From contig CAIUQE010000011.1 in NCBI GenBank assembly GCA_903901225.1, forward strand, positions 1,453 through 65,452: DNA of 64,000 bases, read 5' to 3'. The notes beneath the pieces are model-generated. The model was not told where the DNA came from, did no database searches, and saw only the letters and a program-made list of their open reading frames with translations. This document shows positions 8,061 through 57,900 of this stretch, piece by piece. Position 1 is the stretch's first letter. The number at the start of each line of letters is the position of its first letter. This DNA is from Candidatus Omnitrophota bacterium (GTDB lineage: Bacteria; Omnitrophota; Gorgyraeia; Zapsychrales; Fredricksoniimonadaceae). A program made the position numbers and the translations under genes.

Positions 8061-9527
8061 TTATTCCTCCCCCGTAAGGGCGGCGTCGCCCGTCGGGCTG
8101 TCGTCCGCGAGAGCCTGGGACAACGAAACACTTTTAGGCGTAAAGAAAACGATGGTCTCCTCCTTGCGCACGCTGCCCTCAAGGCGGAACGCGACACCAA
8201 GGATCGGAAGGTCTCCCAAAAGCGGGATCTTGTGGGTCTTCGATACCCTGGCGGCAATGATCATCCCCCCGACAACAGCGGTGTACCCTTCCCGCGCGCT
8301 GAGGACGCTCGCGCGCTCGGCCTTCCCGGGCGCCACGGACGTCACCACATCGCCCGTCACGTCGAACCCGGACTTGACCGTGAAGGTCATCACGGTCCCC
8401 GAAGATCGCGGGGCCGCCGCGGCACTTTTATCATCCGCCGGAATAACAGACATCTCGATCGCCGGATCATCCAGCCGCACATTCACAAGCGCCGCCTCAT
8501 CTCCCTGCAGACGGATGGATGACAAAGGATATTCCTGGACGATCCCGACCGTGTCCAGGGCTTCAATGAGTGTCGGAAAATCATCGTTGGCAACCATGCC
8601 GTAACTCAACGCCTGCCCGTTGGCGCCGCCCGCGAGCAGGGGCGAACGGCCCTGGAGCCGCATGCGCTGGTGATCCTCCAGGATGCCCCCCCAGTCAACC
8701 CCATTGGGATGCTCATCGTTGAGGGTCACGTGGACCAGCTTGGCCTCGAGCATGATCACGCGGCCGCGCGCGTCCATCGCCTCGAGGGCCTTGCGGACCT
8801 TCGCGACCCGGGTGAACGTATCGATCACCCGCAGGGCATTGGCCTGCGCGTCCGCCTCGACGCGGCCCAGGCCCGGCGACAGGAGCCGCTGCACTTCCCC
8901 GACAAGCTCCTCGGCGCGCAAATTCTTCAGCGGCAGCGTCACGGCGGTGGTCTGCACATCGATCCCGGCCAGGAACCTGGCCATGTCCCTCACCTTTTCA
9001 TCGCTGTCCACCACAAGGACGGTCTTCGCCGTCTCATCAATAACGATCTTGCCCTGGGAGCTTTTCATCTGTTCAAGGAATTTTTGCGCGTCAGCGGGAG
9101 GCAGGAAATTCAACCGGATCAATCTCGATGTCTTGCTCTGGCCGAAGGGATAACCGTACTTGTTCAGGAACTCGTCGGCCGTCATCACGCGGATGATGCC
9201 GGATTCTTCCGTGTACGCCAGATTGTTCGACTCAAGGACGATCCGCAACGCCTCCCGGGCATCGACGCGCTTGAGGAAAACCGTCACCTTGCCCTTGACG
9301 CGCTCCCCCGTGATGATGTTCAGGCCGCTCTTCTGGGCGATGATCTCGATCGCCTGGGCGACGTCCATATCTTTAAGGGCGAGTTCATTGATGAGAGGGC
9401 TGCCCACGGTCACGGTCATGGCACCCGGAACCTGCGGCACATACGCTTCCTGCCCCGCCCATGATGAACAGGCCAGGGCAAAAAATCCCACAAATAGAAT
9501 AATAGGGCGGATATTAAAAAGAGTCAT
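8061..9527 (-). CDS. Secretin-family outer-membrane channel (GspD/PilQ-like), short form
   Basis: The 488-aa product has a signal peptide, N-terminal secretin_N-like repeats and a C-terminal secretin core ending ...IPLLGDLPILGVAFR. No partner pilus or T2SS genes are in the window. Confidence 0.65.
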   Translation of the reverse strand: MTLFNIRPIILFVGFFALACSSWAGQEAYVPQVPGAMTVTVGSPLINELALKDMDVAQAIEIIAQKSGLNIITGERVKGKVTVFLKRVDAREALRIVLESNNLAYTEESGIIRVMTADEFLNKYGYPFGQSKTSRLIRLNFLPPADAQKFLEQMKSSQGKIVIDETAKTVLVVDSDEKVRDMARFLAGIDVQTTAVTLPLKNLRAEELVGEVQRLLSPGLGRVEADAQANALRVIDTFTRVAKVRKALEAMDARGRVIMLEAKLVHVTLNDEHPNGVDWGGILEDHQRMRLQGRSPLLAGGANGQALSYGMVANDDFPTLIEALDTVGIVQEYPLSSIRLQGDEAALVNVRLDDPAIEMSVIPADDKSAAAAPRSSGTVMTFTVKSGFDVTGDVVTSVAPGKAERASVLSAREGYTAVVGGMIIAARVSKTHKIPLLGDLPILGVAFRLEGSVRKEETIVFFTPKSVSLSQALADDSPTGDAALTGEE

Positions 9528-9579
9528 AAAGTTCGTATATTGTTATTGAAATCGAAACGACTGTCAACTCTTTTACCGA

Positions 9580-11337: not shown

Positions 11338-11341
11338 AGGG

Positions 11342-13888
11342 TCACTCCAGCGCTTTCTTCATGTCGCCGAGCCGGGCCAAAGCCTGCAGCGGCGTGAGGG
11401 TATTGATATCCAGCGCTTCAAGCCCGGCGGCCAGCGCCTGGAGTTTCGGGTCAGTTCCTGAAAAAAGGTCCGCCTGCCCTGGACGAGCCTCGGGCCCTTT
11501 GAGCCGTTCGCGCAGATTCCCGTCGCGCTCCAGCTCAGCCAGTACCTTCTTCGCCCGCTTGACGACTGACGCGGGCATGCCCGCGAGCTTGGCCACGTAG
11601 ATCCCGTAACTGTCATCCGTCCCGCCGGGAATGATCTTGTGGAGAAAAATGACCTTATCTTCCCATTCGCGCACGGCCACATTGAAATTCTTCACACCGC
11701 GGTACTGATCCGCCAGGAGCGTCAGTTCATGGAAATGCGTGGCGAACAAGGTGCGTGCCCGGCGTTCCGCCAGGAACTCGGCCAGCGCCCAGGCCAGCGC
11801 GAGCCCGTCATAGGTCGATGTGCCGCGGCCGATCTCATCCAAAATGACCAGGCTGCGGTCGGTCAGATTGTTGAGGATATCCGCGGCTTCGGTCATCTCC
11901 ACCATGAAGGTGCTCTGCCCCTTCAGGATCTCGTCGTGCGCGCCGATGCGCGTGAAGATCTTGTCGACCACACCAATGCTGGCCGATGACGCGGGAATGA
12001 AGCTTCCCATCTGCGCCATGATGACCAGGACGGCGTTCTGGCGGATGTAGGTGGACTTGCCCGCCATGTTCGGCCCGGTCAGGACCATGAGATGCGCCGC
12101 GCCACGGTCCATGCGCGTGTCATTGGGGATGAAATCATCCGCCCGCACGGCCTCGACCACGGGATGCCGCCCGTCGATGATGAGGAGTTCTTCCCCGTCG
12201 GTAACTACGGGGCGGACATAACCTTTCATGTGCCGGGCCATGTGCGCGAGGCTGTAAAGGACGTCGATGACCGCCAGTTCCCGGCAGTAACCGTGCAGGG
12301 CCGCCGACTGGGCGAGGATATCCGCCTCCAGGCGGCGCATGATATCAGCTTCAATGCGCAGGACCTTCTCCTCGGCGCTGAGGACGCGCACTTCAAATTC
12401 TTTCAGTTCCGGCGTGATGAAACGCTCGCCGTTGGCCAGGGTCTGTTTGCGCTGGTAATCAGCCGGTACGGACTTCAAATTCACATTGGTCACTTCGATG
12501 TAATACCCGAAGACCCGGTTAAACCCGACCTTCAGGGAATTGATCCCGCTGCGGCGGATCTCCTGGGCCTGGTAAGCGACGAGCCATTCACGCCCGCCTT
12601 CCTGCAGGCCCTTGAGCTCGTCGAGCGCGGCGTCATAGCCCGCCCGGATGACCTTGCCCTCGTTCTTGGCAAAGGGCATGTCAGGATCAATGGCGCGTTC
12701 CAGGGTATCCCGCAACGCGGGGATATCGCTTAGCGCGAAAAATCCACTTTTCCCGGCGAGCGGCACCAAAGCGTCACGGATGACCGGCCCCCGCGCCAAT
12801 GCCTGGCGGATGACCAGCAGGTCCTTCGGCGCGCTGCAGCCGCAACTGATGCGGGAAATGCTTTTTTCGACATCGGGAATGTTTTTCAGCAGCGCCGTGC
12901 CCAGGTGCTCCAGCAATTTTTCCTCATGCCGCAACAACTCAACGGCATCCTGACGCTGGCGGATCTTGCCAATGTCTTTCAAAGGATGGTACAGCCAGAA
13001 ACGCAGCGCCCTTTTGCCCATCGGCGTCACGGTCCTGTCGATCACCTGCAGGAGCGTTTCCATCTCCAGGCCGTAATGGGCGGCGGGCGCGATGAACACG
13101 TATTCCCCGTCGTCGTACAGCGTGATCCGGTCGATGTGCGCCAGGCGGGTCTTGTTCATCTCCCGCAAATACTCGACGAGCGCGCCACAGGCGGCCTGCG
13201 CCAGCGGCAATTCTTCAATACCGAACCCGCGCAGGGAATGCGTGGCGAAATGCGCGCACAAGGTCTCATGCGCCCGGGCGGGCGCGAACGACCAGGGCCG
13301 GAAAGGCGTCATGGCCGTATTCTTCAGCCGCAAGAGCGGGTGCGTAAAAATATCGATCTTGCTCTCTTCGGGAAAAATGCATTCGTTGAGCGCAAGCTTG
13401 GCCAGGACCTCCAGCGCGCGGGACAACGGCAACTGGTTCGTGTGAATGACACCCGTGGCCGTATCCGTGAACGCGAGGCCATATTGTTTGCCGTCGCTGC
13501 AAACAGAGGCGATATAGCGCGCCTCGGCTGCGTCATCAAGATAAGTCCCGGCCGTAATGATGCGGATCACGTCGCGCTTGACGAGGCCCTTGGCCAGGGC
13601 CGGGTCTTCAACCTGCTCGCAGATGGCAACTTTTTTGCCGGCCTTGACAAGCCGGGCGATGTAATTGTCCGCGGAATGATAGGGTAGGCCGCACATGGGC
13701 ACGCGCCCCTCGCCCCCCGCGCCACGGCTCCCTCTGGACGTGAGCACCAGGTCCAGGATGCGCGACGCTTCCTGGGCGTCCTCATAGAACATCTCGTAGA
13801 AATCTCCCAGACGGAAAAAAAGGATACAGTCCCTGTGACGGGCCTTGATGTTGTTGTACTGCTTCTGCATGGGAGTGAGGGGGTCCAT
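11342..13888 (-). CDS. mutS: DNA mismatch repair protein MutS
   Basis: The 848-aa product has the mismatch-binding N-terminus (TPMQKQY ... GDFYEMF) and a Walker A motif (GPNMAGKST). Confidence 0.92.
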   Translation of the reverse strand: MDPLTPMQKQYNNIKARHRDCILFFRLGDFYEMFYEDAQEASRILDLVLTSRGSRGAGGEGRVPMCGLPYHSADNYIARLVKAGKKVAICEQVEDPALAKGLVKRDVIRIITAGTYLDDAAEARYIASVCSDGKQYGLAFTDTATGVIHTNQLPLSRALEVLAKLALNECIFPEESKIDIFTHPLLRLKNTAMTPFRPWSFAPARAHETLCAHFATHSLRGFGIEELPLAQAACGALVEYLREMNKTRLAHIDRITLYDDGEYVFIAPAAHYGLEMETLLQVIDRTVTPMGKRALRFWLYHPLKDIGKIRQRQDAVELLRHEEKLLEHLGTALLKNIPDVEKSISRISCGCSAPKDLLVIRQALARGPVIRDALVPLAGKSGFFALSDIPALRDTLERAIDPDMPFAKNEGKVIRAGYDAALDELKGLQEGGREWLVAYQAQEIRRSGINSLKVGFNRVFGYYIEVTNVNLKSVPADYQRKQTLANGERFITPELKEFEVRVLSAEEKVLRIEADIMRRLEADILAQSAALHGYCRELAVIDVLYSLAHMARHMKGYVRPVVTDGEELLIIDGRHPVVEAVRADDFIPNDTRMDRGAAHLMVLTGPNMAGKSTYIRQNAVLVIMAQMGSFIPASSASIGVVDKIFTRIGAHDEILKGQSTFMVEMTEAADILNNLTDRSLVILDEIGRGTSTYDGLALAWALAEFLAERRARTLFATHFHELTLLADQYRGVKNFNVAVREWEDKVIFLHKIIPGGTDDSYGIYVAKLAGMPASVVKRAKKVLAELERDGNLRERLKGPEARPGQADLFSGTDPKLQALAAGLEALDINTLTPLQALARLGDMKKALE

Positions 13889-38904: not shown

Positions 38905-41607
38905 TCACGCGCCCAAAGTGACCTTGAACTCCACCTTCGACGTCGCATCGCCGAAAAATGAAAGCGGTATCCTAGCTTCTTTGCCGGGACCGGATATAAA
39001 GTTCCTGCCCTGCGCTTCCACGGACATGACCCTGTAGGCACCGGCATCAAGCCTGTCGGGATTGGCGTAAACCACATCAACCCCGCGCCCGGCGAACTGC
39101 AGGCACACCTTCGCCCGCCCGGCGGCGTCAAATTCCTCGCGCACAAGCTGTGGCGCGAGCACAAGGTCGCCCGCCTGCCCGCGCACGCCATAAGCCTGGG
39201 TCAAAAGGGTCAGGACATACCAGCTGGCCGATCCCGTTAGGAAATGGTACATGCCCCGGCCCGCGGGATCAAAATATTCCGGGACGCCCGGATAGATCTC
39301 GGCGCGCTGGGGATGGACGCTCATCGCGTAAAGGGAGCGCAGGACCTCGTGCCCTTCACGCGCCAGACCCTGGACATAAAGCGCGTACGCGTACATGACG
39401 CACATATGGCTAAACACGGCGCCGTTCTCCTTGGTGCCGAACGCGAAGCCGAACGCGCGCCCCATGGCCAGATTATGCCGTAACCCGAGGTCCGTATTCA
39501 GACGATAACCTCCCAGCGCTTCATCTTTGAGGAATTTCCCCACCGCCCTGGCCACCGCGCGCGCCTCATCGACGGAAGCGACCCTGTTCATCAGAGGGAA
39601 CACCTGCCCGGTCAGCGTCATCCATATCCGGCCGTCCTTGAGCCCCTCGAAACGCTCGCCATTGTTGTCGTAATACCCGTTGAACCAGGTGTACGACTCA
39701 CCGTCGCGCGCCACCGTGACCTTTTCACGCGTCCGGATATGCGCCAGCACCCACGCGCCTTTTTTGCGAAGATCGGCGATGACGGCGGCCACGTCAAATG
39801 CCACAATCTCGCCGGAAAGTTCAGGCTGGACCGCCTTGAAATATTCATCGAAAAGCCTGCGGCGTTTGGCCCCGGCGTCGTCATAATCAACGGGTTTTCC
39901 CAGGGTATCCAGCAACAAGCCCAGTTCCCTGGCCAACGTGAGCGTGCCAAGGCCCTTCGCGGCCGCCAGGCGCTCCAGGAGCGCGGCAATGGCCAGCATG
40001 TTCCCGCCGTAGAACGACATGAACGCGACGCTTTCGCCGCGCTTGAACGCCATGTCCAGCCCGTCATTCCAGTCGGCACTCTCCAGCCGCGTGATATTGT
40101 GCTCACCCACATTATAGAACTGAACGAGATGCTGGATCAGGATATGTTCGAGGACGCTGCCGCGATAAATGTTGCCTTTTTTATCCTTGAGCTGATTGCC
40201 GCTGGCCGGCGTCCAGCCCGTGTCGCGCGCCGTGCCGCGGGCCATCTGCGGGTCGCTGAAATACGGCACCGGCTCGAACAGGAACGCGTCATCGCCCGTC
40301 TGGTCGACGTAAAGCATTGTTGTCAAAAAGGGCCACACGCCATGGTCCATCCACACGCGCGTGATGGCGTTACGGTCCGCGATGAATTCCCCGGGCTTCT
40401 GCCCGATGATGGTGGCATTCGCCCCGTCGACGCGGACTCCCGCGAAATTGTTGAGCAAGTCACCCCTGACGCGCCCCGGCTCAATGAGGATGAGCGACAA
40501 GAGGTCCTGCCAGATATCGCGCCAACCCTTGCCCCCCTTGCCGTAATCATGGTCCGGCAGGAAAGAACACCCGAAGATCCGGCGCAGGACGGGCTGGAGG
40601 GTCACCCAGCGCATCCACGCGTCGAAATCCGCGTCGGCCGTATGGAAAGTTATGGCGGACGTCTTCCCGGCCCAGAAAGCGCTGTTGGCCTTGAGCGCCG
40701 CGTCGAACTTTTCCGGCGTGTCAAATTGCCCAAAAGCCGCCGCGCACCCCTGCGCGTGCGCGCCCATGCCGATCGCGACAATAAATTCCTTTACCGCGCC
40801 GGGTGCCAGGGTCGTGTCGGCAAACCGCAACGCTCCGACCGCCTCCTGCCCCTGGCGTTCAACTTCGGACAAAAGCCGCGGCGCGCGGCCATCAACAACG
40901 GCCTGGGGCCGTAGCCAGCCGCCATGACTGCCGAAGAATGCCTCACACGTCGGAAATGTCCCGACGGGAGCTTTGCCGCCGTCATCGATCCCGAGCACAA
41001 AATACACATCCGCGCACACCTTGTGCCCTTCTTCATTGAAGCGCATCGTAGGTTCAAGCAAGACACCTTGCGGCACCTGCGTCACGCGGTTCAACAGGGC
41101 CGTCACATGCTCATGGTCATGCTTGTTGGCCAGGGCGCGCCCGAAGATCGGAATGGCCGCCACCGGCGTAACCGTAACTTTCTCGTTCGAAATATTGCGC
41201 ACGGAAAAACGCGTCAGCTCCAGCGTGCCGTTGTCAACGGGAATAAAACTCAAGGCGGATAATTCAAGGCCGATACGGCTGAAGCGGCGCGTCACCTTGT
41301 GCCATAGCTGGCCCACTTCCACGGAAGGCGCCGGAACATCCTGGTCGGCCATGGACACGACCCCCCGGCCTTCGACGCGCGCGAAAAAGTTACGCGCCGC
41401 GCCGCGCAGGTCTTCGCGCGAAACAGGCTTCGTCAGGTAATGGTCCTTATCGGTCTTGATATCGCCGGAAAGATAAGGCGTGATGGAAGACTTGACGGTC
41501 GTCCCGTCAACCCCGCACAAAGGCGCGTAAAGAAAACAGCTTGCGGCGCCGGGCACGCGGAACGAGCTTCCGTCAGGAAGGAATTCATAAAACTTAGCTG
41601 CTGGCAT
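38905..41607 (-). CDS. Intracellular GH94-like glycoside phosphorylase, (alpha/alpha)6-barrel (cellobiose/chitobiose-phosphorylase-like)
   Basis: The 900-aa product has no signal peptide. It has an ADWNDGLD motif, consistent with the catalytic-Asp motif of GH94-type phosphorylases, and a length typical of the family. I cannot separate GH94 from GH65-like by eye. Confidence 0.5.
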   Translation of the reverse strand: MPAAKFYEFLPDGSSFRVPGAASCFLYAPLCGVDGTTVKSSITPYLSGDIKTDKDHYLTKPVSREDLRGAARNFFARVEGRGVVSMADQDVPAPSVEVGQLWHKVTRRFSRIGLELSALSFIPVDNGTLELTRFSVRNISNEKVTVTPVAAIPIFGRALANKHDHEHVTALLNRVTQVPQGVLLEPTMRFNEEGHKVCADVYFVLGIDDGGKAPVGTFPTCEAFFGSHGGWLRPQAVVDGRAPRLLSEVERQGQEAVGALRFADTTLAPGAVKEFIVAIGMGAHAQGCAAAFGQFDTPEKFDAALKANSAFWAGKTSAITFHTADADFDAWMRWVTLQPVLRRIFGCSFLPDHDYGKGGKGWRDIWQDLLSLILIEPGRVRGDLLNNFAGVRVDGANATIIGQKPGEFIADRNAITRVWMDHGVWPFLTTMLYVDQTGDDAFLFEPVPYFSDPQMARGTARDTGWTPASGNQLKDKKGNIYRGSVLEHILIQHLVQFYNVGEHNITRLESADWNDGLDMAFKRGESVAFMSFYGGNMLAIAALLERLAAAKGLGTLTLARELGLLLDTLGKPVDYDDAGAKRRRLFDEYFKAVQPELSGEIVAFDVAAVIADLRKKGAWVLAHIRTREKVTVARDGESYTWFNGYYDNNGERFEGLKDGRIWMTLTGQVFPLMNRVASVDEARAVARAVGKFLKDEALGGYRLNTDLGLRHNLAMGRAFGFAFGTKENGAVFSHMCVMYAYALYVQGLAREGHEVLRSLYAMSVHPQRAEIYPGVPEYFDPAGRGMYHFLTGSASWYVLTLLTQAYGVRGQAGDLVLAPQLVREEFDAAGRAKVCLQFAGRGVDVVYANPDRLDAGAYRVMSVEAQGRNFISGPGKEARIPLSFFGDATSKVEFKVTLGA

Positions 41608-41657
41608 ACGCGCTCCGAGATCCAGGTCTTTCCAGGGGGATCAATACGGAAGAAAGC

Positions 41658-42032
41658 TCACGTGAAGGGGGCTTCAACCTCATGGGCGAACTTGACCAAA
41701 CGGTGCATTTTCATCAACTCGACCTTGTGGAACTCCATCCCGACATCCCACAGTGAACCCGCGCGGCTTCTCGACCAGCGCACCCGTCCGCTGAACTGCA
41801 GCGGCGCGCACCCGTCGGGAGCCTTGACATTGATCGAAATATTATCATCCACAAGAAAACGCTCATTGGTGAACAAGCGGGCACCCGACGCTGAACAATC
41901 TTTCATTTCAACTTCGGTACCGTAATCCGCGGGAGAGTTTTTGAATTTTGTGGGCCACTGGGCTGAAAAACGCTGAAACGTGCGAAGGTCGCTGATTCGA
42001 TTTTTGCCGGTGGGATTGTCACGCGCTTCCAT
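41658..42032 (-). CDS. PilZ-domain (c-di-GMP-binding) protein
   Basis: The 124-aa product has an RxxxR-like segment (NRISDLRTFQRF) and a DxSxSG motif (DCSASGARLF). An AAGGAA Shine-Dalgarno sequence lies upstream. Confidence 0.55.
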   Translation of the reverse strand: MEARDNPTGKNRISDLRTFQRFSAQWPTKFKNSPADYGTEVEMKDCSASGARLFTNERFLVDDNISINVKAPDGCAPLQFSGRVRWSRSRAGSLWDVGMEFHKVELMKMHRLVKFAHEVEAPFT

Positions 42033-42047
42033 AACAGTTCCTTTTGA

Positions 42048-42401
42048 TCAACCCTTCATTTCCTGATGCAAAAAACGCGTATTCAGCGCTGAATCAAGAT
42101 CCTCAAGCGAACCGTCGATAACATCCGCGAACGTGAGCCCGACGCGATACTGATCGGATTTCGGGATACGGCTCACCCATTTCACCTCACCCACCACAAG
42201 CACAGGTTCCGTATCCGGCTTCAACACCAGCTCAATGGCTACCTTCTCGTTCAACTTCGCGGGATGCTGCGAAACAAATCCAATGCCGTCACGGCTGAGA
42301 TCCACCGTTTTCGTATATGTGAAACCGGCGCCTTCTTTCCCATCAACAGGAACATAACAATCGAACCGTCTGGATTTTCTTTTGTTAGCTGGATTTTCCA
42401 T
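42048..42401 (-). CDS. PilZ-domain (c-di-GMP-binding) protein
   Basis: The 117-aa product has RR (KSRRFD) and DxSxxG (DLSRDGIGF) motifs. It is the first gene downstream of the AT-rich 42.4-42.9 kb region. Confidence 0.7.
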   Translation of the reverse strand: MENPANKRKSRRFDCYVPVDGKEGAGFTYTKTVDLSRDGIGFVSQHPAKLNEKVAIELVLKPDTEPVLVVGEVKWVSRIPKSDQYRVGLTFADVIDGSLEDLDSALNTRFLHQEMKG

Positions 42402-42941: not shown

Positions 42942-45900
42942 TCACTGTTCCCCGCGCCCATGGCGTGCGTGAAGATCATTCCACAATAGATCACGCCACG
43001 CGCGATCAAAGACCACGCATGACTGCCCCGGTTTCTTATCCGTGCTCCGCCGCACATATTCAAAATGGCGCCTGTACATTTGCTCCTGCTGGGATATCAG
43101 TCCAAAAGCGCCGGCAGAGATCGACGCCCCATCCTTGCGAGGATAAATGAAATACTGGAATAAATGCACCATGACGATCGCAAGCTCTTCGGGCGGCGCG
43201 TTCAAAACAAACCAGTCGTCGACCCTGATGCTGCGCCCGGCCACATTGATTTCAGCCACCTGCCTGATACTGTCCGCGAGAGATCCGGCTTCGGCCAATT
43301 CTTCACCCGGCCCCACCTGAACCACAAAGTCAGGAAGGTCCTTTGCCGCTTCACCCAGCAACTCCTTGGCTTTACTGAGCGCCGCCTTTACCCGGTTCAA
43401 AGAGGAATTCCTTCCCCCGTTAGTGCTCTTCGCCGGCGCATTCCAGATCTTCGCGGGAAAGAACCGATCCCGGCCGGGATCAGGCAATTCCCGTGGATAC
43501 ACCATCATGACATTCGACCCGCAGCTGGCCAGATCCCCCGGCCGCGAACCTGGGATCACATAATGAAAAGAAGCACCAAAATTCTGGTGGATGTTCATCT
43601 GGAACCTGTCACCGACCACATTAAAATGGAACCAGGCATAATCTTCGAGTGAATCGAATTCACTCAATGCAAAATACCGCTTCACCTGTTCAGTGGCCAA
43701 TACCTCCCCCTCATTAAGGCGAAGGCCGAATTCCCGCACGAGCTTCAGCCTGTCGCGCGCGAATTTTTCACAAAACTCATTATCCTTATCCGAAAGGGAA
43801 AGGGCGAAAAATTTCTTGTAGTCCCCGAACGTTGGCAAGCCTTCATGCTCCCGGCTCGCCCAGATGCCAAAAGTGTCAATAACTTTACGGACATCCACTT
43901 TTCCATCAGGTTTCAGATAAGGCTCAACCCTGAATCCCGGATTGTTGAGAATATGCTCCATAAAAAATTCGGCGCGGCTGTAAGCAACGGGAGGCCGCCG
44001 GCCAGAGTCCATCGCCAGCTCATGGCTCGCGACGATCAGCCGCTTGGTCAACTCAAGGGTCCTGACGCAGTCATCGTTCCTGACGGCAATGATGGAATAA
44101 TCAAGGAGGAACTTCCGGCTCGCGGGGTCATGGCGCAGCGGAACATCATCGTAATGGTCAGGGATCTCCTCCACAAAACTCACGAACACGCCGGCCTTGA
44201 TGACACCGTCGACCCGCGCCACAAAAACATGATTGGGGACGCTGCCACGAACGGGGTCACCGAATATCCGCGCCCGGACGCTCTCGGGTAAAACATCAAT
44301 GCCGCACATGGCTTTCCAGGCGAAGACCTCCAGATCAACGATCTGCTGGACCTCCGGGTCATCCGGGCCAAAGGGCACAAATCTTGATATCGTCACAACA
44401 GGCCCTGGTTGAGATGTTCGCGGCCCGGGCGCATGTTCCAGGGGTTCTTTCATAACATCGCCGGCAAAAGCTTCGCTTTCCTCATGCGTCATGCCGAAAA
44501 TGGCCGCGGCTTCATGGATCAGCGTATAGCGCAGTTCGAAAGATGTTCGTTCATGTTCAGGATTGATAATGATGTAATGCAGGCCGTTAAAAGTGGCGTT
44601 AACGGCAAATATCTTTGTTTGAAAAGCGCGTTCAATTACGCGAAAGATCTTTTTGAGCCCCGGCGGCGCGTTGATGATGATGGCATGCTCGAGGATGTTT
44701 GCTTTTTCATGGCTGCGACGTTCTCTCAATGTCCGCGCCGACGCGTCCCGATCCTCGTCATATTCAAAAACTGCTTTGGCCGCCGCGATCTCCTGTTCAT
44801 GGGCAACGATCCCGGCGCGCAGTTCCGCTTCCCCACGGCGGGACAGTGGGGGGAAAGCATGGGCGGGATCACGTGCCGTGACAAGAGATCTCTGTGTATT
44901 CGCTGAAACATGATAACCAACGTAATACCCGTTAGCGCTTCCCAAAGCTTTATACGCGCCGGCCCTGTAACTGTGGCGGGGCACCAGGGTCAAAAGAGTC
45001 TCCCGCGTCTTCCCGTCATCCCCGCGGAACGTGACCCGGTAAACTTGATCACCATCAGCCCTGTGATCCCGGATGATCCTGTGAATGAATTCCCGCCGTG
45101 CCTGACCCCACGTGATGGCCATGACCTTAGGGCGAAAAGCTTCGGGTTTCCTTTTCCCGACATTGACACCGAACATCTTTGAAACACGCTTCAGCTCATT
45201 GCCCCGATAGGCCCTGACATCCAGGCGCTCCATATACATTTGCATCAACCGGCCCACAGCTCCCTGCGCGGTCTTGCTATCCACGCTCGCGCGCAACAGC
45301 GCATCTTCAAAAATACGCCTCTGATACCAGGAAATATTGGTTTCATCGGGCGCCAATGTCCTCCCGGCATAGCGGACCTCAACCTTCCCTGCTTCACCCG
45401 CGAAAGGGAAAGCCCGGTAACGGACCAACTGGCGGATATATTCACGGGTTTCATACGGCACATTCGCGCGCCAATACATCTTCAGGGGCGTTACCATCTC
45501 TTCCCCGGGAATGTAACGGCGCGCTTTATCGTCCGACAGGATATTGCGTTCTACCAGCTTGAACACCCGGTCCTTCTGAACCACAAGCTGGCCGTATCTT
45601 CTGTAAAGATCGTTGTCAGCTTCCATCAGGGAGCAGCGGGCCGTTTCAAGATCCCCCTGGGAAAAACTTTCCCGCGCAGCCTTCAGGGTTTCGCGCGACG
45701 CACCCTTCGTTGACTCCGTTTTCTCCGTGCCATTTTTCAGATACGCGATCATGTGATCCAGAATTTCCATCACACTGGCCAGCGACAAAACCGGCTTTTT
45801 ATCCGACGCGATAGATAAAAGAACGCGGATATCGTTCCGCAAGCCGGCAACAATGGCCTCTTCCTTCTGGACACTCTCAAGCTTATGGACCCATTGCCTC

Positions 45901-48900
45901 TGTTTCGGGTTCAATCCGAAAAGGTCCATGGCCGAAATATCCACGCGACCGGTCTTGGGGCTCATGACCGCCACATGCTGCGGCATTTTCTCCAGGAAAT
46001 TTGTGACAGCATCAGGCCGACGGTCCATGGCCTCGATCAATGTGGCCGCCGGATCCGGGTTCTGCCAGGTATTGATCAGAAACATTTTCCCGTCATTGGC
46101 CCCGTCAAAGACTTTCTTTGGATCTTGCGTCACGCGCAGATGCCCCGCCCGGATCAGGTCCATCAATTTCCAAAAACGGGCCTTGTCATTGCCGTGATAA
46201 TAGAGCACGACAACCTTGACCCAAGCCGGGAGGCTATCCATGGCCACCGGCGTGAACCCGCTGTACCTGATAAGGCCCATGTCCCGGACGTAATCGGCCT
46301 CCATTGCGTTGGCGGTCTCAACGGCAAAAACTTCACTCTGCTCATGCGTCATGCCGGAAATGGCCGCGGCTTCGTGGATCAGCGTGATAAGCCGCTGACG
46401 GCGTGTCAATGCATGATCAGGGTTAAAGATGATGTAATGCCGGCCGTTGAAGGTGGCGTTGACGGCGAAGATCTTGATCCGGAGGATGCGTTCAAACTCG
46501 CGCAAGACACTTTGCAATTCCGGCGGCGCGTTGATGATGATCACATGCCTGAGGATGTTCTTTTGTTCACAGTTGCGGCGTTCCGGCCACAAACGCATGG
46601 CCACATCCCTGTCAACGTCATACGCGTGAACCTCTTTGACCTTCAGGATCGGCTGCCGCTGCGCCACGATCTCGCCTTGCAAACGGCGCTCTTCGTCGGA
46701 AGATAACGGCCCCGTGGTGCGGGCGGGGTCTCTGTCAAACGTGACGGGTTTTGTATTTCTAAGAATATAATTAACCGTATCGCATTCTAAACGCAACGCA
46801 ATAAGCCCGCTCCTTATTCCTTCAGAAACGAAAGTCCGGCCTGTGGCTTGAACGACCTTTTTCAACCCGCACAACAGAACTTGTTTTTCTTCATCTGTCC
46901 CGGCTTTAGTGTAAACATCCATCAGGGCTTTGATATTTCCATCCGTGGCCATGGCCAAAGAACGGCGCGACATCACCGAACCCAGAGCCCAGGCGAAACA
47001 ACGGCGAGACAAAGGCCCTTCGGCATCAAACATCCGCGCCAAATACTGAGGGAACTCGCGGTCCAGCGGATATCCGGACAAAACGGCCGATCGCAGCAAT
47101 TCAAAGAAAAGATCTTCCCAGCGCGCGGCCTCAACTTCGGATAAATTCGACCTTTCCTTGAACGCTTCCAGGAAATAATAGAAAGTTTCAGGGAACTGCT
47201 CAACACAAGCGGCCAAATTGCTAACTGCCTTGTCAACTTCTTCTGTCGTCACGGAATTTGCCCATGCCGCCATCACCTCACTCCAGCGCCTTCGCGCCGA
47301 GCGGGCCCTTCCCGACAGATAGGACCTGGCCGTATTTGCCGCCTGCGTCGCCTGCCGGACGGCGTCTTCATAACCAACACCGCCAGCCGCCAGGATCCGG
47401 GATTCGTAAGCCAGCGAGGCGAATTGCTCCTCCCTGTTCCAGTTATGCGTCGGCGAAAGAATGATGAATTTCTTCCCGCTCCTGGTCGTGTGGTTCCATG
47501 AAAAAATAATGATATCTTCGGGGCGTACCCATGCCTGAGCATCTTCCTCAAACGCCGCCGTCGCCCAACGGACATCCGCCCGCACCAGCGCCAGCGCGTC
47601 AGCTTTGGATCCGCGCCGGTCCAGGAATTTCCGCAGCTGGCCTTTTTCCTTAGCCGGGAATTTCGGGAATTTGTCCATGACCTTTTCCCGGTCACCCAGA
47701 AAATCCTGCATGTCATCGCGCTCATTTGAACTTAACAATTTGCTGGCGCGAACCGGATCAGCGGATGACGCATTAAAGTCCCTCAACGACGTTGTCCTGC
47801 GGCTGTCCGCGGGATAAGGTTCCTGCGCTAACTTTCCCGCCACGACGCCAGCCACCAGCAGCAGTCCCATCCCCGCCAGGATGGCCGCGACGTGGGCCGG
47901 CGATGTCAGGGCCAGCAGCGCCGCCAGCGGCAATAGGCTGCACTGGATATTCCCGAATGACATTTCTGCCTCGTCGTCAAATTGACAACGTTCAAAACTG
48001 GCACCCGAAAAATTCGCCCCTTCCAGACAGGCTCCCCGGAAATCAACATCCTCGAATGTTGTTCCTCTGAAATCAGCATAACGGCAATCCGCACTGAAAA
48101 GATCGACCCCGGTCAAATATGCCCGGTTCATGCGCGCACGCACAAATGAGGCACGGGCAGCCTTCACATCTTTCATGCGAATGAACATCAATGAAGAATA
48201 GCTGAGGTTGGTTTTCACCAGTCTCACATCAACAAAATGAGCATCCTCAAGTTTGACACGCGACAAATCAGCTTCTTCCAATGTGATCTTTTCCAAAAAA
48301 GATCCGCTCAGGTCAACCCCGGACATGTTCCTCCCTCTGAATATCCCGGGGCACTTGTTACCGATCCATTGAAGCATATGCGCATTAAGTTCAGGCCTGT
48401 CGGCCTCAACGATGCGCCACGCATTCTTCTCAAAACCATTTCCTAGGAAACCAGCTTCATCGAAATGTGTAAAGATATAATTCCGGATAAAAGAAAAAGC
48501 TGTCTCATCCAGGTATGGCCTGTACAAATAAACACTGGCCCTTCCTGAAGCCAGCTTCCTGTATGTGACAATCAACCCCTCCAACATATTTTTATGCCCG
48601 GAATTAACACTTACACAAGGCGCATCAAGTACCAGGGCTGTTTTGCTACCGGAGAAACTATGAACAGATTTTACAAGGATAAGAACACAACCTTCGGGCT
48701 TATCCCAAACAACAGGCAGCCCGGCCCCATGGCATTGCCCTGAAGCCGGATAAAGATCAATGCTGGCTACCGGCACTTTGACCAGCGCAATATCCTTCTG
48801 ATAGCACGCTTTAAGGAACTGGTCCTCCGCATCAGAACAAACGGGACTTACGATCCGGCCCGGGGTCGCAAGGATCGAGAGCTGCGGCACATTTATTCCA

Positions 48901-51900
48901 AACTTCCCGGAATCCAACCTGGCCTGGACCGCCTGCGGGACGGGAAGATCTTCCGTGAACGCCAAAACTTTCGCGTCATCGACAGATGTCTTTATGCCAG
49001 CCCGCCAGTTCCCGGTCGTCCTCCATCCGGGGATCTCCGCAAAAGAAAACCTTTCTCCAACAGACGCAGACCATTGATAAATGGCCGAGGCGACCGGCGA
49101 AACTTCTGTTATCACAAGATCGCCATCCTGCATGTCTTCCCGCATACGACGGTAAAAAGGCTGTTCTTTTCTCATCTGTGAATCCCGGCCCGGACGCTTG
49201 TCGATCATGACCACACTGCCCGGCTCTTGCGTCCTTTGATAACGCCAGAAATAATAATTTTCCTTGATAAGAAGAATCTTGAACGTGCGTCGAGGGTCAA
49301 TGCCATCGAGCCGATCATAACATTGCTGTTGAAGGCGGGCGAGATCCGGCACATCATTGTAGGATGTCGAAATAAAATATAGCTCCTTCAGATTCGGGAA
49401 ATAACGCGCCAGCCTGACGGCATTCAACGGATCCGCGTTCCCCGACGCGGGATAGATCAACGTCGTATAGGCATGGGGATCAACACCCTGCTCTTCCAAT
49501 ACTGTAGAAAAATCATTCAATGACCTTGTCCTGCGGGTGACCGCAGGAACAGGTTCCTGCGCGAGCTGTTCCGCTAATTCGATATTGTTCTGCCGCGCCG
49601 CCTGGATCTCGTTGCGATCTCCCTGGTTCTTCTTAATTTGTCCCACCACAACCCCCGCCACCAGCAGCAGTCCCATCCCCGCCAGGATGGCCGCGGCGTG
49701 AGCCGGCGATGTCAGGACCAGCGCTGCCAGCGGCAAAAGGGCACACTGGATATTCTCTTGTGAACGGTTGCGACCTAACAATTTTTTAATCGCGCCAAAA
49801 ACAATACCGGTCAGCTTCAAAGGTAAAGAAAGTCCCACAATAAGGCTCACCAATAAAAGCTTGAAAGGGTTTGTCTGAATAATTTTTTCCCATTTGCTAG
49901 GCGCCTTACTCCGGACTATTCCATAGGTCAGCGCAACCGCCCCCAGGATCGTGAAAGCAACAACTCCAACCGCAATAAAAACACCGGCCCAGGTCAACGC
50001 ACTCCAACCGGCTGTTGCTGTTGCCGGTGCCATCAATAACAAAAGCGGCCAAGCAAAAGATCGGACTGTCCCGGCATCAGGCCGGGGCTGGACTGTTACA
50101 GGCGACTGCTTCATGTCGCTCAAATTCCTGTCCGCAACAATCCGCTGAACCCTGGCCGCATTATCACCAAAAGCCCTGCCGGGAACCTTGTCTTTAAACG
50201 GTGCTGCAAAATCCATAAATGGTGCCGATAATTGGATCTCGATTTCAAGTTGTGATCCGTTATACAGCACGGTTACAGGCAATTCTTTTCGATTTGCCAG
50301 ATCCTCTGCCAATGGCTGAAGATACGCAAGCCTTTCTTGCAGATCCCGCATTGCCATAAAATCGTGCGACGTCGTTACAACAACATCTTTAATAAACTGC
50401 CCATTCACCTCTTGCATTTGCACGGTCCGATGCAACTGTTGCAGTAATTCTGCAAACGCAACAACATTGACTTCCGCAAGATTTGCCAAAAAGCCCGGAC
50501 AATAAACACGAATGCGTTCAAGATAATCATGTTCGAAAGCTTCTGTCCAATATCTTTTTTTCTGAAGTGCTTTTACTACTTGCCTGGTCTTACGCGCAAT
50601 CTCTCTAACTAACAAACGATTTTTTGTAATAAGAACAGATATTCGCTGCTCCAAAGTTAACCCGTCGACCATATACTTGTAACGCGTTGCCCAAGCTCTT
50701 TTCATCTGCTCCAAGCCATAAAAATTTCCCCCATTGCGGTCACTCCCATCAACAAAAGCCATTAAGAAAAATATATCCAACCACTCGCCCTTGAATTGGA
50801 ACATGTCGTTATATAAATAATCTCTCCCGAAATTATCGACAACTCCATGATGCCGCACAAAAAATGTCATGGCCGTCACAACACTCTCGTGATACCCCCG
50901 CTTACGCAGTTCGCCTGCGATAATGTTTGCGCCTTCACCATAATGATCCCATTCGCGAATACCATAACGGACACCTGCATCATGCGCCGCTGCACCCGCT
51001 ATCAGAATGTCCCGGGCGCGCGGACTCAAATTCTGATACACATAAAAGAATTTCTCACATTCAACACCATATTCTTCCAGGGACACCTTACCCTTAATTA
51101 CAGAAGAAAGGCCATCGTATAATCTTTGCCAGTCACGCGACGCAAGCATCTTTATTCTTTCATTCACCAACATAACATGCGTCTGCTTTCGTTCTTTAAT
51201 ATCAGGCAAAAGGAACGTCTCAATTTCGCGCGCCAAATTGTTCGCATCAGTAAGACCCGTCAATTCAGGCAATACGTTAACTCCAACATTCAAACCGGAA
51301 ACCCTCTGTGCCTCTGACGATGCCAGCGCTTTCAATAAATATGAAAAATATTTCTGACTAATTTCCTCCACCGCCTGTTGCCGAACGCGCTCCTTGAAGC
51401 CACCGTTCTTTTCCCAAACGAAAGGATATACCACCAGCGCGCCGCGCCCTTCACGCACATATTCATTCATCAACATGATCTGAACAACACCTTCAATAAC
51501 CCGATTCAACATGTCCTCGGGTTTGTTAAAATCACCTGTTTGCTCTTTTTTACGGGATGCGACCTGAAGTTCAAACGAGATATCACCGCGATCTTCATTG
51601 CGCACAAGCCTCATTTGCATCTCATAAGCCATAGCCCTCACACTGTCCACAACGTCCCCATTAACTCGAAAAGATGGCCTTTTAAAATAATCTACGACAA
51701 GATGATCCACTTGTTCAATAAAAAGATCACTCTCAATGAGTGCCGCATTCGCCGCAAGAGCCTTGATCTTGTCAGCCGAATTGCGCCCCAAAGCCATTAC
51801 TGCTTCTTTTTCAATTTTTGTCCCACGCGCACCAGCATATTTCCGCTCCCACTCCCATACTCGCCTCTGAAGTTCACCCCTAAGCCGCAAGTCACGCAGA

Positions 51901-54900
51901 TCGATCTCTTCTTTATGCATTTCCCTTCGCATCATGTTCGTCAGGGAATAACCCAAAAACCGCTCGAAAGGACTTATGAAGATTTCCGCTATCACGCGCT
52001 GATTCACAGCCCGCAGAGAAATCTGATGTGACGTGAAAGGCGTAATAAAGATCGTATACATCTTCCCATAGGCATCGCTAAGTGTTCGAAACCAACTATA
52101 CCCTCCCTCGAGCACCGTTAATTTTTTACTGCCGAAGGCTGACGCCAAACCCTTAATAGGGCGCACAACTTTAATATTTTCATCGGAAAGATCAACATCC
52201 TTGTCGCCTTCCAAAACAGTTTCGATCGGCGCATCCTTCATGTGCAAAGTAACAGTTTCCTCAAAATCTTCTTTAGCCATACCCTGCAACTGCTTGTTCA
52301 CACGCACAAGGTCGATCTTACCTTGTGTCGCAAGCGTTAAAAGGCGATTCTTGTCCGCGACACCCAGATTATGAAATCCAAAGTGATATTGCTCACCATC
52401 AACCTCACCCGCCCTTGGATGACGTGTATGATAAAGCGCCAACCTTTCAACAAAGTCTCGATAAAGCGCTTTATCACCTTTAAAAGCACTCGCCATAATT
52501 GCCCCCTTGCCTACTCCCGGCGGCCCGGAATAAACAAGCATTTTTTCCTGTAAAAAAAACTTATCCAGCGGGATCAACCGCAGAACATCTGCCAATACAT
52601 CGACACTTAAAGTATCAATCTCTTCATCCTGAAGTTCACCGCGCATCAAGCGTTCAGCCAACACTCTGCCCTTAGGTATCGTCAAAACATCAGTACGCTG
52701 TTCCGGAACAATCCCCCTAAGCCCTGCCGTCGTCACCTTGATCCACGCGGGAGAGCCCAGGTTACTTTCCTGCGGATCCAGCGCCGCGATGCTTTCGGCC
52801 GAAACCTGCGCCAGCTCAACCCCCATCAACGCCTCATCCGGAATGATCTTCTTGACCGTCGTACTCACATTGACGCGGCTGGCCGTGACGAATACCGGCG
52901 ACCCCGCCAGCTCTTGACGCATAACGGCAAAAGCCGCATTCAATTCCCGTAACTGTTCAACGTCCCCCTCTTTGAGATAGGCCACTGAAATATGATTGAT
53001 GTCCGGAACAAAACGCCTGTAACCTTCAGGAAGATCGCCGGTAAAGCGGGCCGCCATCCGCCCGCGCAACAGCGTCGGGTTATCCGACGCCGACTTCAAC
53101 TCCAGCACAACGGAAAGATCCGGCATCAGCCGCGGGCCAACAACCTGATACGCGAACGGCGTCACACCCCTCGCATCCTCTTCAAGCCCGGACATAAATT
53201 CCTGACGTTCCATGATCGGCCGCGGGCCGATCATAAAATTAGCCACGGTCGTATGGATCTTCGCAAGCGCCTGATAGATCGCCTTCCCTCTGTCCGTATC
53301 CGCCAGCTTGTCAGCAATGACCTGCTGAACGCGGTCAACGACATCACGGGCAGCTTCCTGGCCTCCGAGCGGAATATTATGAAAGATCGACCATTGCGGC
53401 CTTGCGAGGTTCAGGTGATTACGTGCCAATTGATCCCCAACCTGAGCCCCATCTTCCAGCAATTTATCCGTCAATATCTGTTTGTACCCAAAATTCACTG
53501 CGGAAGGATCACTCCCTGCCAGCATCCGATCAAACCCGTCCACCGCCTGCACCCCGAAAACTTCCGGCCGCGCCAGGACTTTCCGCGTGGCTTCTTCAAT
53601 AGCCGGATGCGCCCGCAGATAAAGCAGCTGCCGCGCCATGGCGACGGGCTCATCCGCGCCTTCAACATGAAATTTCTCATGGCCTTCCACGACCCCCTGC
53701 AGGAACAGTAAGTACGCGGCCTTATCCTCACCGGTCAATTCAACAAGCCTGTCTAAATTGGATAAATGTACGTAGAGCGTTTTTTCAGCGGGATTGTAGG
53801 CGGCAATGCTGTCGGCGGTGCGGGCAAAGTCAGAGGTGACAACCACGGCGCACGGAGGCGCCTGGGACAAATAGGGAACTGCCGCGTAAAGATCCCGCAA
53901 CACTTCATCACGCGCCTTATTGAGCGTCTGGCCCTGGGCGTCGATGGCGCGGACACGGTTGTCAACGCCTGCTGTCGCTGTGTAATTGAGCGGCGGAACC
54001 TGATCATTGTAAAGTTCGCGCGTAGCCGTTGACGGAACAAAGGGGGCGGGAGCCGCTGCCCGGCCCTGAATATTTTTTAACGCCTTTTCGATCACATCCA
54101 TGCTCTTATGCGCGTAACCATCCGATCCCTGTTCGACATAGATAAACGTGTCCGCCAATAAAGCCCTCACATGCGACACAAAACGCATTTTCTGTCCAAC
54201 CGCTTCCGGCGCAGCAAAAATGCCGGGGTCTTTCTCGATCAATTCATAATATTTATGCAGTTCCACCAAACGTTCTTTAGCATAACGGCTGCTTATCGCT
54301 GAACTTACTTTGAACGCGACCCTCGCCAGCACAAATGTCACAACAGTCCCTCCCACGATCCAGAGCAGGTTCCCGAGCGGGATGGAAATGCGCGCGGCCA
54401 GCGTATCAAATGCCAGGAAACCGGGAATGGGCACTATAAAGAACCAGATCATCCCGAAAAGAGCGACGACAAAACTTCTGAGGAATTCGGAATAAAGCCG
54501 CGCCTCCTGCATCTTTTTATCTTTTTTAAGTTTTGTCATGTGCGCATCGAACATGTTCGCCAGCATGGCCGGAGGAAAGTACTTGATCAACCCGGCGTGA
54601 AAGTTATTCAACTTGCCGGCCTTTTTATTCAGGCCCTCAATTTGCTTCTCCGCGCCAGAATGCCCTTGAACCCTATTGTTCTCCGCTCTTCTCATGGCCC
54701 CGGTCTTAGGATGATGGATCTGTTCCACAATGGCCTTTGGATAATACATGAGAACCCACGTTAACAATGTCAACCCAACACCGAAGACCAGCACGGTATA
54801 CGCTGCCATAGCACCCCAGGTGCCACCCAAAAGGACAAGGGACGACAATCCGGAATACAGGACCCCGGCCACGCCCCATCCTGCCAGCCTTGACCCCCAC

Positions 54901-57900
54901 TGCTTTGCGTTCCCCGCGAAGTGCCCTTCAGGCGTTTTCATGACGAACATGCCAATGACAAGCCCGAGATTAAAAAGAAGCGACGGCAGCAACAAGATAA
55001 CATTGAGCATATCAAGGCCGGACAAAGCCCAGAGATTCAAGCCGAACAAAAGCAATCCGAAACCCCAGATCACTTTCATGTTGATAAAATTCTCGTATTT
55101 GCGCGTGACATGCTTTCTCATTTCAACGGAGATCGAATCTTCAGCATCCGCGCCGGATAACGTGAACTTCAAGCTCTGGCGCGCGGCCTGACCCAGGAGG
55201 TGGATCATCTGCTGTGTCGCAAACAGCAGGAAGTCGCGCGGCCGATTGGATAGCCAGCGAGAGAGGCCAATGATAAAGCCACCCGCCAGGAAAGCCAGAT
55301 AAACCGAAACCGGATCACCTCCAAAAATCCCAACAATGGCCGCGGCGACAAGCGCGAACACAACAGCGGTCTTGGTATAAAACTCGTGCGCCTCAAGGTA
55401 GGCAATAAGACCATTGAATGTCAGGACCTGGTTGAACATGCCGCCGAGGATCGCGAATACCAGATTAACCCCGATGAAAGGCAGGAAACCGAACTTGATC
55501 GCGATCGGGATCAAAAGGATAAACAGGATCCCGTGAGGTGCTGTAAGGAAGAAGCGTCCGCCGTTATCGCGGATCTCCTTGGCGAAAATGGACTGCGGGC
55601 CATAATCCTGGATCTTCTGCATCATCTTGTCCATCATCAACTGCGGAAACCCGCCTGACCACCGGGGAAACGCGGCCATCCACTCATGCTGGGCGTACGT
55701 CTCACGGATCTTGTGCCAGAACGCCTTGGACTGCGCAAACCGGGGGGTACCGCCCAAACCAATGACCGTGTGTGCCTGCTGCTGCACAGCCCAAATATCC
55801 TCGGAAATACCCACCGCGCTCGGAATGAACCCTACAAGCCCGAACAAGCCCGAAAAATAATTATCCCAAAAGCCCCGGCGCAACGTCCTGGAGCGGATGC
55901 TCAGCGGCATTGTCGGGTACTGCGGGTTCATCAAGGCCGTCTGCGCCCTCCAGTAAGTATTCTTGAGGATATTGCCCCAGCCCGTGCCCACCGACTCACC
56001 CGCCGCGCCGCCGATAGCCATGACACCCTTGACATACGCGCGATGCCCTTCTTCAATGCTCTGTGAAGACTCTCCATGCGGCGACTTGATATTCGTTGTC
56101 CCGCGGCTGGGAACCACAATGACCAGCGAATCATCCGCCAGGGATGTTTTCACATCCAGCACAAAATCATCCATGTTATGAACCGTCGCGTTGCGGTCCA
56201 TAATAAGGAAGGTGTCTTGGCGACTGACCCATTCATGGACCATATCTGTGCCTGTCATGGCCGCGGCTTTATTGGCAAAAGCAGTCCAGTCATGCACAAC
56301 GTTTCCTTCAATGCCTGTCAAAGTTTTCACAAGCCGCAACAACTTCACCCGCTGGCCTTTATCGTCATTCCATTGATAATTTTCTGCGGATGGATTTTTG
56401 TTTCCATCTTCATACTTGTTGCTCAAAAGGATCATGCCGATATCAACACCCGCAAGTTTTTCCTTCAATGCCAGCGCGATATCCATGATCGTGATGCCCG
56501 TATCCTGAGAATGCCCCCCTGATGACTGCATGGAAACCAGGAAACGACGCAGTTTCCAGGTACGGATCAGGCGATCCTTCTGCGCTTCGTCCCGCGCGTA
56601 GAGCCAGATATTGTCGTTCGCCACATCCGCCTGCTGCGTCCCGGCTTTTTGTGCGTCAATAAGGATCTGTACCGGGTGCCACAAGGTCACTTTAAATGTA
56701 GTTTCAACCTGATGCAGTTCCGTGATCCATTCTTTGACTTTTTCATCACCCGCCGTCCCCACAAGATCGTCCACCTCGGCCATGACATCGATCCCGTGCG
56801 AACTGCGGTCCTTGAACCAGTTCCAGCGGTCAATGACGATCTGGCCCCCGAGCCTACCCAGAGTTCCGACCGCATCGCCACCGGCAAAGACCAGCGTGAA
56901 CAATTTTTTGACACCGTGAGCCTTTTCATGCGCGGCGACATTATCGATGTACGCCTTCTCGATACGGGCGTCGTTGCGGGCCATTAGCAACGTGATGATC
57001 TTCTTGTCCAGCAAGCTGGCGGCGATAAGAATGGCGACGACCATCCCATTGACCGGCAGCACAAAAGGCATATGCAGGATCCCGGTAACAGCCGCGGCGA
57101 CAACATACGCCAATCCAAGTGTTTTCATCGGCCATGTGACAAAAGCCGACGCCACAGAATTGATAACATTGGATATGGCGTAACGCGTCATATAAAGCGC
57201 GAGCGCCAGGACAAAACTGCCCGCCCCCAACTGCCACACCACACCGCTGGTCAGATAAACATCCGAGATCCAGTTCACCATGGCCGCCTGTCCCATGACA
57301 AACCCGCCGAGCCACATGAACAGGCCGCTCAATACCGCGTAATTAACAATGGCCTTGAACAGATCCATGGCCCGGCCCGTGGGAACAGATGGCTGTAAAT
57401 GACGGATCAACGAATCCCCCACGATCGACATGGGCCGGCTTTCCGGAATATTCAAAAGGTTCAGGAATTTCGCCAATCCCGAAAATCTGTTGTTGCCCGT
57501 CCGCTCCTGGTAATTGATCCAGGTCTGGGTAACACGGCTATACAATGTGAAAAGATATGGCAAAAAAACGCCGGCGGCTTCCGTCCCGGCGACCAGCCAC
57601 ATCAACCCGTGCGTCATGAACCACTGGCCCAGGCCATGTACCGGCACCATGCTTAAGCCGGCACCGATCAGGACAAACCCGATACCGCGCAGGATATGGC
57701 TTGCGTGATGAAAACCCTTCAATATCCTTGCGGCCGTTTCATCAACGTTCAGGTATCCTTTATATTGCGTCTTTGCCAGAGCGGAAACGGCCACACGCAG
57801 GACCACGCCCACGCCGACGAACGCGAGCGCGAGCTGAATGACCGGCATCGCAACAAGAACAGCCGGCAAAGCGCCAAGGAATGTAAAGATCGACACGCCG

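Follow-up and report, generated by a model that had tools for sequence, protein, structure and literature searches.

Introduction

Omnitrophota encode some of the longest known proteins, and much of the sequence of these proteins is unannotated. A multi-enzyme class of Omnitrophota giant proteins has been described by Nielsen and Lui 2026 (10.64898/2026.06.07.730766), whose set comprises 5,761 proteins of at least 10 kAA. Both that work and West-Roberts et al. 2023 (10.1101/2023.11.21.568195) bear on the question of whether the giant chains act whole or are cut; in the latter, cleavage is left open and the cleavage points are unknown. Where "dark" is used in these papers, it refers to whole proteins without database matches rather than to a recurrent undescribed domain. 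Here we analysed a stretch of 64,000 nucleotides (hereafter the window) from a Candidatus Omnitrophota bacterium (assembly GCA_903901225.1, contig CAIUQE010000011.1, positions 1,453 to 65,452 of the forward strand), in which a giant open reading frame (ORF) on the minus strand carries a recurrent module. Judged from alignments and structure prediction, the module is a real, self-folding domain of about 150 residues belonging to a small, undescribed family; this new family is, in the sequences collected so far, restricted to large proteins of Omnitrophota.

The closest described systems to the module are the zincins. Minimal zincins, such as SprT-like/Wss1 proteins, ImmA/IrrE (M78), selecase-type minigluzincins and MATCAP, share a scaffold in which strand, helix, hairpin, active-site helix and C-terminal helix follow each other in this order. 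The module resembles them in being a small alpha/beta unit with the predicted order of strand, backing helix, hairpin, HE-bearing helix and C-terminal helix, and they supply its recurring best, albeit sub-threshold, structural matches. Unlike the minimal zincins, it has no HExxH (Ala replaces the second His in 18 of 20 family members) and shows no sequence or profile match to them; it has an additional N-terminal strand and four-helix segment, and it occurs in several copies within giant proteins, whereas the zincins are single small proteins. The N-terminal PA-binding domain of anthrax lethal factor has a zincin-type scaffold that has lost the zinc motif and serves protein-protein contacts. 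This domain has no detectable relationship to the module but provides a precedent for the role that we favour below.

In metzincins, the helix with the motif HEXXHXXGXXH carries the first two zinc-binding His residues and the catalytic Glu (PMC9848320). As aligned, the module motif HExxAxxGxx[H/D] corresponds to the zinc motif of metzincins, except that Ala takes the place of the middle zinc-binding His. The likeness to astacins, matrix metalloproteinases and snapalysin consists of H(0), E(+1), G(+7) and H/D(+10), counted from the first His, all of which are shared by two window copies and roughly half of the family members. The differences are the missing middle His, the occurrence of G(+7) and H/D(+10) in only part of the family and, in the predicted structure, a single helix (residues 143-159) after the motif, which would leave little room for a Met-turn subdomain.

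The host protein resembles the multi-enzyme giants in its Omnitrophota origin, its length (16,809 aa, amino acids, thus exceeding the 10,000 aa that mark the class) and its membrane segments. The relatives of the module likewise combine sugar-metabolism, kinase, methyltransferase, GNAT and HEAT domains. Unlike proteins of that class, the host is almost Pfam-dark over the 7,018 aa that lie in the window.

Three copies of the module in the giant ORF

An initial annotation, made from the sequence alone, had proposed two copies of the module in one minus-strand ORF, and this was borne out by BLASTP. Copy c1 (46293-46769, minus strand, aa 5722-5880) and copy c2 (44433-44912, minus strand, aa 6341-6500) showed 57% amino-acid identity over 137 aa (E 8e-44), and the stretch between them was unrelated sequence. 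The aa numbers of all copies follow the ORF as listed (42942-63932, minus strand, 6,996 aa). A divergent copy, c3 (47319-47804, minus strand, aa 5377-5538), was found with a profile of c1 and c2 (E 1e-4) and matched c1 in BLASTP (E 1.6e-4). Employing an out-of-sample profile of 17 sequences, all from other organisms, we recovered c1 with 105 bits (E 1.6e-34), c2 with 104.5 bits (E 2.4e-34) and c3 with 28.4 bits (E 7e-11).

The number of three copies agrees with the initial annotation, but the third one is c3, which lies outside the range annotated there, and not a degenerate copy placed near the C-terminus at 43180-43215. The sequence at that place (DWFVLNAPPEELAIV, 43173-43217, minus strand) is not a module copy. 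Only the 7 residues LNAPPE[EL] are similar; the E-values with three profiles were at least 3 (3 to 24), with merely 7-15 residues aligned, and at the DNA level only about 12 nt were shared with c1.

The DNA stretches within c2 (44463-44725) and c1 (46323-46585), initially reported as about 80% identical, are indeed strongly similar, but the measured figure is 73.4% (ungapped), compared to a same-frame background in the gene of 27 +/- 3% with a maximum of 38%. In a wider alignment of c1 and c2 generated with MAFFT (560 nt), the mean column identity was 79%. The ratio of nonsynonymous to synonymous substitution rates (dN/dS) between the two copies was 0.28, with dS at about 0.8-1.2. With this ratio and dS near 1, c1 and c2 are the products of an old duplication and evolve under purifying selection. 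The module had also been taken to be about 90 aa long. The homology reaches back to a conserved DPAR[T/S]xxPL[S/T] that precedes IIINAPP by about 65 residues, so that the homologous unit comprises about 150 aa.

Conserved motifs of the module family

The family alignment (20 sequences) shows four motif blocks: DPAR[T/S]xxPL[S/T]xxE..L, vvIxAPPxL..I..FE, vFAxN..G..III.P and sLIHEAxAL.G. Two residues are invariant, Ala in APP and Glu in HE; conservation of at least 90% is seen for both D and R in DPAR, for the Pro and the Asn, and for Ala at +4 relative to the His. In the last block, H(0) is present in 17 of the 20 sequences, E(+1) in all, A(+4) in 18, G(+7) in 10 and H/D(+10) in 11. Ile and Val occupy +4 in one sequence each and His in none, so that HExxH on the active-site helix is absent from the family. 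Because the +4 zinc-binding position is Ala in 18 of 20 sequences, the module is, on this alignment, without a canonical zinc site. The His has been lost and the Glu retained in three sequences, namely c3, the relative P0017 and the second copy in the relative P0010. G(+7) and H/D(+10) are both present in c1 and c2 and both absent from c3.

In c1, the family motif HExxAxxGxx[H/D] reads HEAAAISGMTH (46344-46376, minus strand) and lies in the predicted second-to-last helix; its counterpart in c2, from the translation and the motif table, is HEAAAIFGMTH (44484-44516, minus strand). The block DPAR[T/S]xxPL[S/T]xxE starts with DPART in c1 (46716-46730, minus strand), where a short strand is predicted at ART, and with DPAHA in c2 (44856-44870, minus strand), where the Arg is replaced with His. 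As aligned, c3 retains DPVR and shows substitutions in the other motifs: APP is replaced with ATA, HE with YE and THE with YED.

The stretch HEAAAIxGMTHEE had been regarded as a potential metal- or nucleotide-binding site. The invariant Glu and the His in 17 of 20 sequences are in line with the former; Ala at +4 and the presence of H/D(+10) in little more than half of the sequences are not. The Glu after the +10 position, in the second cluster of that stretch, is not conserved across the family, and nothing points to nucleotide binding. Asp-Pro autocleavage at the DPAR block was considered as well and ruled out. The FrpC self-processing module, with its GDPH motif, has a strictly conserved scissile Asp-Pro bond; in the present family, the residue after D is Pro in 12 of 20 sequences and V, A, H, W, K or F in the others.

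With Pfam at E-values up to 10, no family was found for the window copies, nor for any consistent fraction of the 20 members. The module matched nothing in NCBIfam or in a sequence search of PDB, and no curated peptidase family was matched by the 20 members in Pfam (E up to 10) or in NCBIfam. The proposal of an uncharacterised domain therefore stands: searches of Pfam and of PDB sequences gave no well-characterised family, and both a family of relatives and a confident predicted fold were found.

Relatives of the module and their partner domains

An exhaustive profile search of 1.84 billion representatives returned 18 matches with E-values from 7e-14 to 6e-4, of which 16 were genuine relatives sharing the module motifs. 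The other two (P0008 and P0012) were discarded as repetitive proteins that scored by summed weak stretches. All seven relatives with a source name came from metagenome-assembled genomes (MAGs) of Omnitrophota, with lengths up to 6,732 aa. A narrow alignment scan of GTDB genomes yielded two loci, both in Omnitrophota MAGs, which turned out to be the relatives P0015 and P0013 in their genome context. Using a hand-made degenerate DNA pattern, we obtained four metagenome matches, one of which was real: a new JGI locus, where the module lies in an ORF at least 1,604 aa long. Word-index homology searches with c1 and with the 20-sequence alignment detected no relatives, scans of the genome and metagenome collections with the three window copies gave no match, and the phage collection contained no record matching the module. 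The family is thus, in the sequences recovered, seen only in Omnitrophota and nearly always in very large proteins.

Most relatives are large proteins with varied enzyme domains. One such combination is glycogen phosphorylase with a ROK kinase, where the module ends 8 residues before the ROK domain. Other partners are class II aldolase, ribose-5-phosphate isomerase (RpiA) together with GNAT, ATP-grasp, HEAT repeats, a methyltransferase together with Nt-Asn amidohydrolase, and a Rce1-like domain. Several relatives hold two or three copies of the module, each with one DPAR motif, and the copies are positioned at N-termini as well as within chains.

In P0007 (1,250 aa, from a Logan assembly), the module is situated at the extreme N-terminus, with YAGR in place of DPAR; the module is thus not limited to the interior of giant chains. 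Downstream of it, methyltransferase-like (VDFGCG) and metallophosphatase-like (GNHDFW) regions were recognised by eye only, and the protein as a whole has no Pfam match. In P0013 (JAPLLU010000097.1, an Omnitrophota MAG), an in-frame TAA (positions 6665-6667 of locus L002) within the last helix of the module ends the protein. Past this codon, the frame is open for 1,691 aa more, as far as the contig extends, and the homologue P0015 continues without a break at the corresponding site. For the TAA, an error in sequencing, a nonsense mutation of recent origin and read-through are all conceivable.

Predicted structure of the module and comparison with zincins

Structure prediction of one module, which had been suggested together with the profile comparison, gave a confident fold. 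For the full unit, AlphaFold2 with the 20-sequence alignment gave a predicted local distance difference test score (pLDDT) of 88.8 and a predicted template modelling score (pTM) of 0.83; the core alone reached a pLDDT of 94.6. The predicted elements are, in order, a strand at residues 17-19 (ART of DPART), four helices, a strand at 78-81, a helix at 84-97, a hairpin at 101-108/111-116, a helix at 124-138 that carries HE, and a helix at 143-159. In terms of motifs, the core consists of a strand (vvIxAPP), a helix, a hairpin (vFAxN...G..III), a helix (sLIHEAxAL.G) and a further helix.

Among the sub-threshold Foldseek matches of the full unit in PDB, MATCAP (7z5g) appeared at ranks 1, 2, 7 and 8, and selecase (4qhi) aligned with a template modelling (TM) score of 0.49 on the target and a root-mean-square deviation of 3.7. 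In BFVD, SprT-like, IrrE or peptidase entries made up 11 of the top 50 matches, again sub-threshold, and their probabilities reached 0.80. Although weak, the best matches of the predicted structure are not random but enriched in small zincins. When the missing His was restored in silico, sub-threshold Pfam matches of mostly zincin type appeared (E 0.018-0.17); this test is biased and provides a lead only.

Another segment of the giant ORF, at 53562-53891 (minus strand, aa 3348-3457), contains a canonical HEKFH motif and, ahead of it, APP and a strand-like stretch. Small HExxH/HExxE segments similar to it are present in the relatives P0003, P0004, P0011 and P0018. Judged by sequence, these segments may represent intact domains of zincin type within the same giants. 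Homology between them and the module was considered but is not supported, as hhalign aligned just 18 motif columns (E 0.27).

Possible roles of the module

Tentatively, we favour the reading that the module is derived from a zincin and serves as a probably non-catalytic connector or docking domain. The module would then descend from a zincin, would no longer hold zinc in the canonical way, and would act as a connecting or docking unit beside enzyme domains or Pfam-unannotated regions of giant proteins. Its N-terminal DPAR strand would pack onto the sheet, and the invariant Glu, like the near-invariant Arg and Asp, may belong to a buried network of polar residues instead of an active site. A non-catalytic role is consistent with the family-wide replacement of the +4 zinc ligand by a conserved small residue, with the absence of G(+7) and H/D(+10) from about half of the members, and with the position of the module next to many unrelated enzymes. 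That c3, P0017 and the second P0010 copy have lost the His but retained the Glu is more easily reconciled with a structural role than with one that depends on a metal.

Several results weigh against this reading. Foldseek found no significant neighbour of the module among 350,542 PDB chains (best E 0.42 for the full unit and 0.16 for the core) or in BFVD (best E 0.047), and the PDB list for the core alone was mostly G-protein noise, in which MATCAP alone recurred. Comparison of profiles with SprT and with the giants' own HExxH segments aligned nothing beyond the motif; the hhalign match to Escherichia coli SprT (E 0.4) covered 14 columns away from the motif. A connecting role is proposed from domain position only, and Pfam searches of the segments next to the window copies gave no match. 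Finally, the invariant Glu, the mostly conserved His and the conserved Asp, Arg and Asn could equally constitute an active site.

If they do, the module may be an active hydrolase, a reading that we consider rather unlikely. It would probably be a peptidase that has a non-canonical metal site and cuts the giant protein at or near the module boundaries. His(0), H/D(+10) and a third residue, for example the Asp of DPAR, would serve as ligands and Glu(+1) as the general base, and cleavage in cis or in trans would release individual segments. The retention of Glu in 20, His in 17 and H/D(+10) in 11 of the 20 sequences speaks for such an enzyme, as does the conservation of D and R in DPAR in at least 90% of the sequences. 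In the AlphaFold2 model, the DPAR strand is added to the sheet like a substrate or pro-peptide in a zincin cleft; one module is found per junction-like position, often after a Ser/Thr/Pro/Gly-rich linker, and the cleavage points of Omnitrophota giants are an open question (10.1101/2023.11.21.568195). On the other side, G(+7) and H/D(+10) are missing from about half of the members, the His is lost from 3 of 20 while the Glu remains, no peptidase family was matched by sequence in Pfam at E up to 10, and cleavage of these proteins is without evidence. In 18 of 20 sequences, Ala replaces the zinc ligand at +4, and we know of no zincin that lacks this ligand. A related proposal, which we regard as improbable, is that of a processing unit derived from a zincin and used only once, in which every copy of the module would bind its own DPAR strand in a vestigial cleft and either cut there or present the strand to a partner protease.

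The fold may also be new or unrelated to zincins, the conserved D, R, N, H and E forming another catalytic or small-molecule site, such as that of a regulatory sensor located ahead of metabolic enzymes, and the likeness to the zincin motif being convergent or coincidental. We take this possibility seriously, though we doubt it. A prediction with a pLDDT of 89-95 found no significant neighbour in PDB or BFVD, profile comparison links the module neither to SprT nor to the HExxH segments that these proteins contain, and the metabolic enzymes of the relatives (ROK kinase, aldolase, RpiA and ATP-grasp) are often ligand-regulated. Yet SprT-like proteins, IrrE, MATCAP and selecase recur in the full-unit searches of PDB and BFVD, with MATCAP alone recurring in the core-only search of PDB, and the order of the elements and the spacing of H(0), G(+7) and H/D(+10) fit a metzincin helix. 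That the module is merely a non-functional repeat, arising from recent internal duplication or from chance or low-complexity similarity, would suit the two close copies noticed initially, but is so improbable that we exclude it. At least 16 further protein clusters, all from other organisms, contain homologues, the out-of-sample profile recovers all three window copies, and c1 and c2 show a dS of about 1 with a dN/dS of 0.28; the predicted fold is, in addition, a confident one.

The family would be important only if it marks processing sites in giant proteins. Were the module a processing unit, its positions would mark where multi-enzyme giants divide into separate working enzymes; it would supply the missing cleavage points and allow a direct test of whether the giants act as one chain or as many products. 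As a connector alone, which is the reading we favour, it would still be a useful new family for annotating dark sequence, without being a major surprise. In either case, the family can be used in domain libraries to delimit units of giant proteins, and its protease-like, zinc-ligand-deficient motif raises the simple question of whether it binds metal and is capable of cleavage.

The giant gene and its surroundings

The 3' part of the giant ORF occupies 42942-64000 (minus strand) and comprises the C-terminal 7,018 codons. Beyond the listed ORF, its frame contains no stop codon across 63933-64000, so that it is open at the window end and the gene extends past the window. The last 2,887 aa of the giant protein are encoded identically on an ENA metagenome contig (ERZ18667627 scaffold_43, 78.7 kb), and the gene product on it was called as 16,809 aa; the window thus covers only the C-terminal ~42% of the protein. 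In these 7,018 aa, Pfam recognised only pentapeptide repeats (around 47973-48179) and a weak guanylate kinase stretch, hence almost no enzyme domains. The N-terminal 3,500 aa visible in the window gave no Pfam match at E <= 0.01, nor did the segments adjoining the module copies, including the stretch between copies, give any match.

Hydrophobic, membrane-type segments are present in the giant ORF. One of them (IQCSLLPLAALLALTSPAHVAAILAGMGLLLVAGVVAG, 47796-47948, minus strand) lies immediately upstream of c3 and is the second of two near-identical copies, the first being at 49599-49751 (minus strand), about 600 aa apart. The two have the common sequence IQCxLLPLAALxLTSPAHxAAILAGMGLLLVAGVV, and AQEP..(S/T)RRT.SL.DF comes after each of them. 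The segment at 47796-47948 runs directly into c3; that at 49599-49751 runs into an unrelated region beginning with DPHAYT. In a multi-pass membrane region farther upstream, ISEDIW (55803-55817, minus strand, aa 2710) resembles the motif of fungal and plant 1,3-beta-glucan synthases. This resemblance was unsupported, since Pfam gave no match to Glucan_synthase even at E 1.

On the 3' side of the giant gene, there are two PilZ genes, a GH94-like gene, a sugar ABC transporter and a GH2-like gene. Beyond the latter, farther along, lie MutS, MutL, MnmG and PurH, of which MnmG is 62-73% identical to proteins named Candidatus Omnitrophota and thereby assigns the organism to Omnitrophota. The group that starts with the two PilZ genes is directly downstream of the giant gene and was noted at 38905-42401 of the window (minus strand) and at 9207-12703 of locus L004. 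The PilZ-domain genes are small, and PilZ domains are receptors of cyclic di-GMP. The GH94-like protein is 900 aa long. The genes directly downstream of the giant gene suggest a glucan-related locus.

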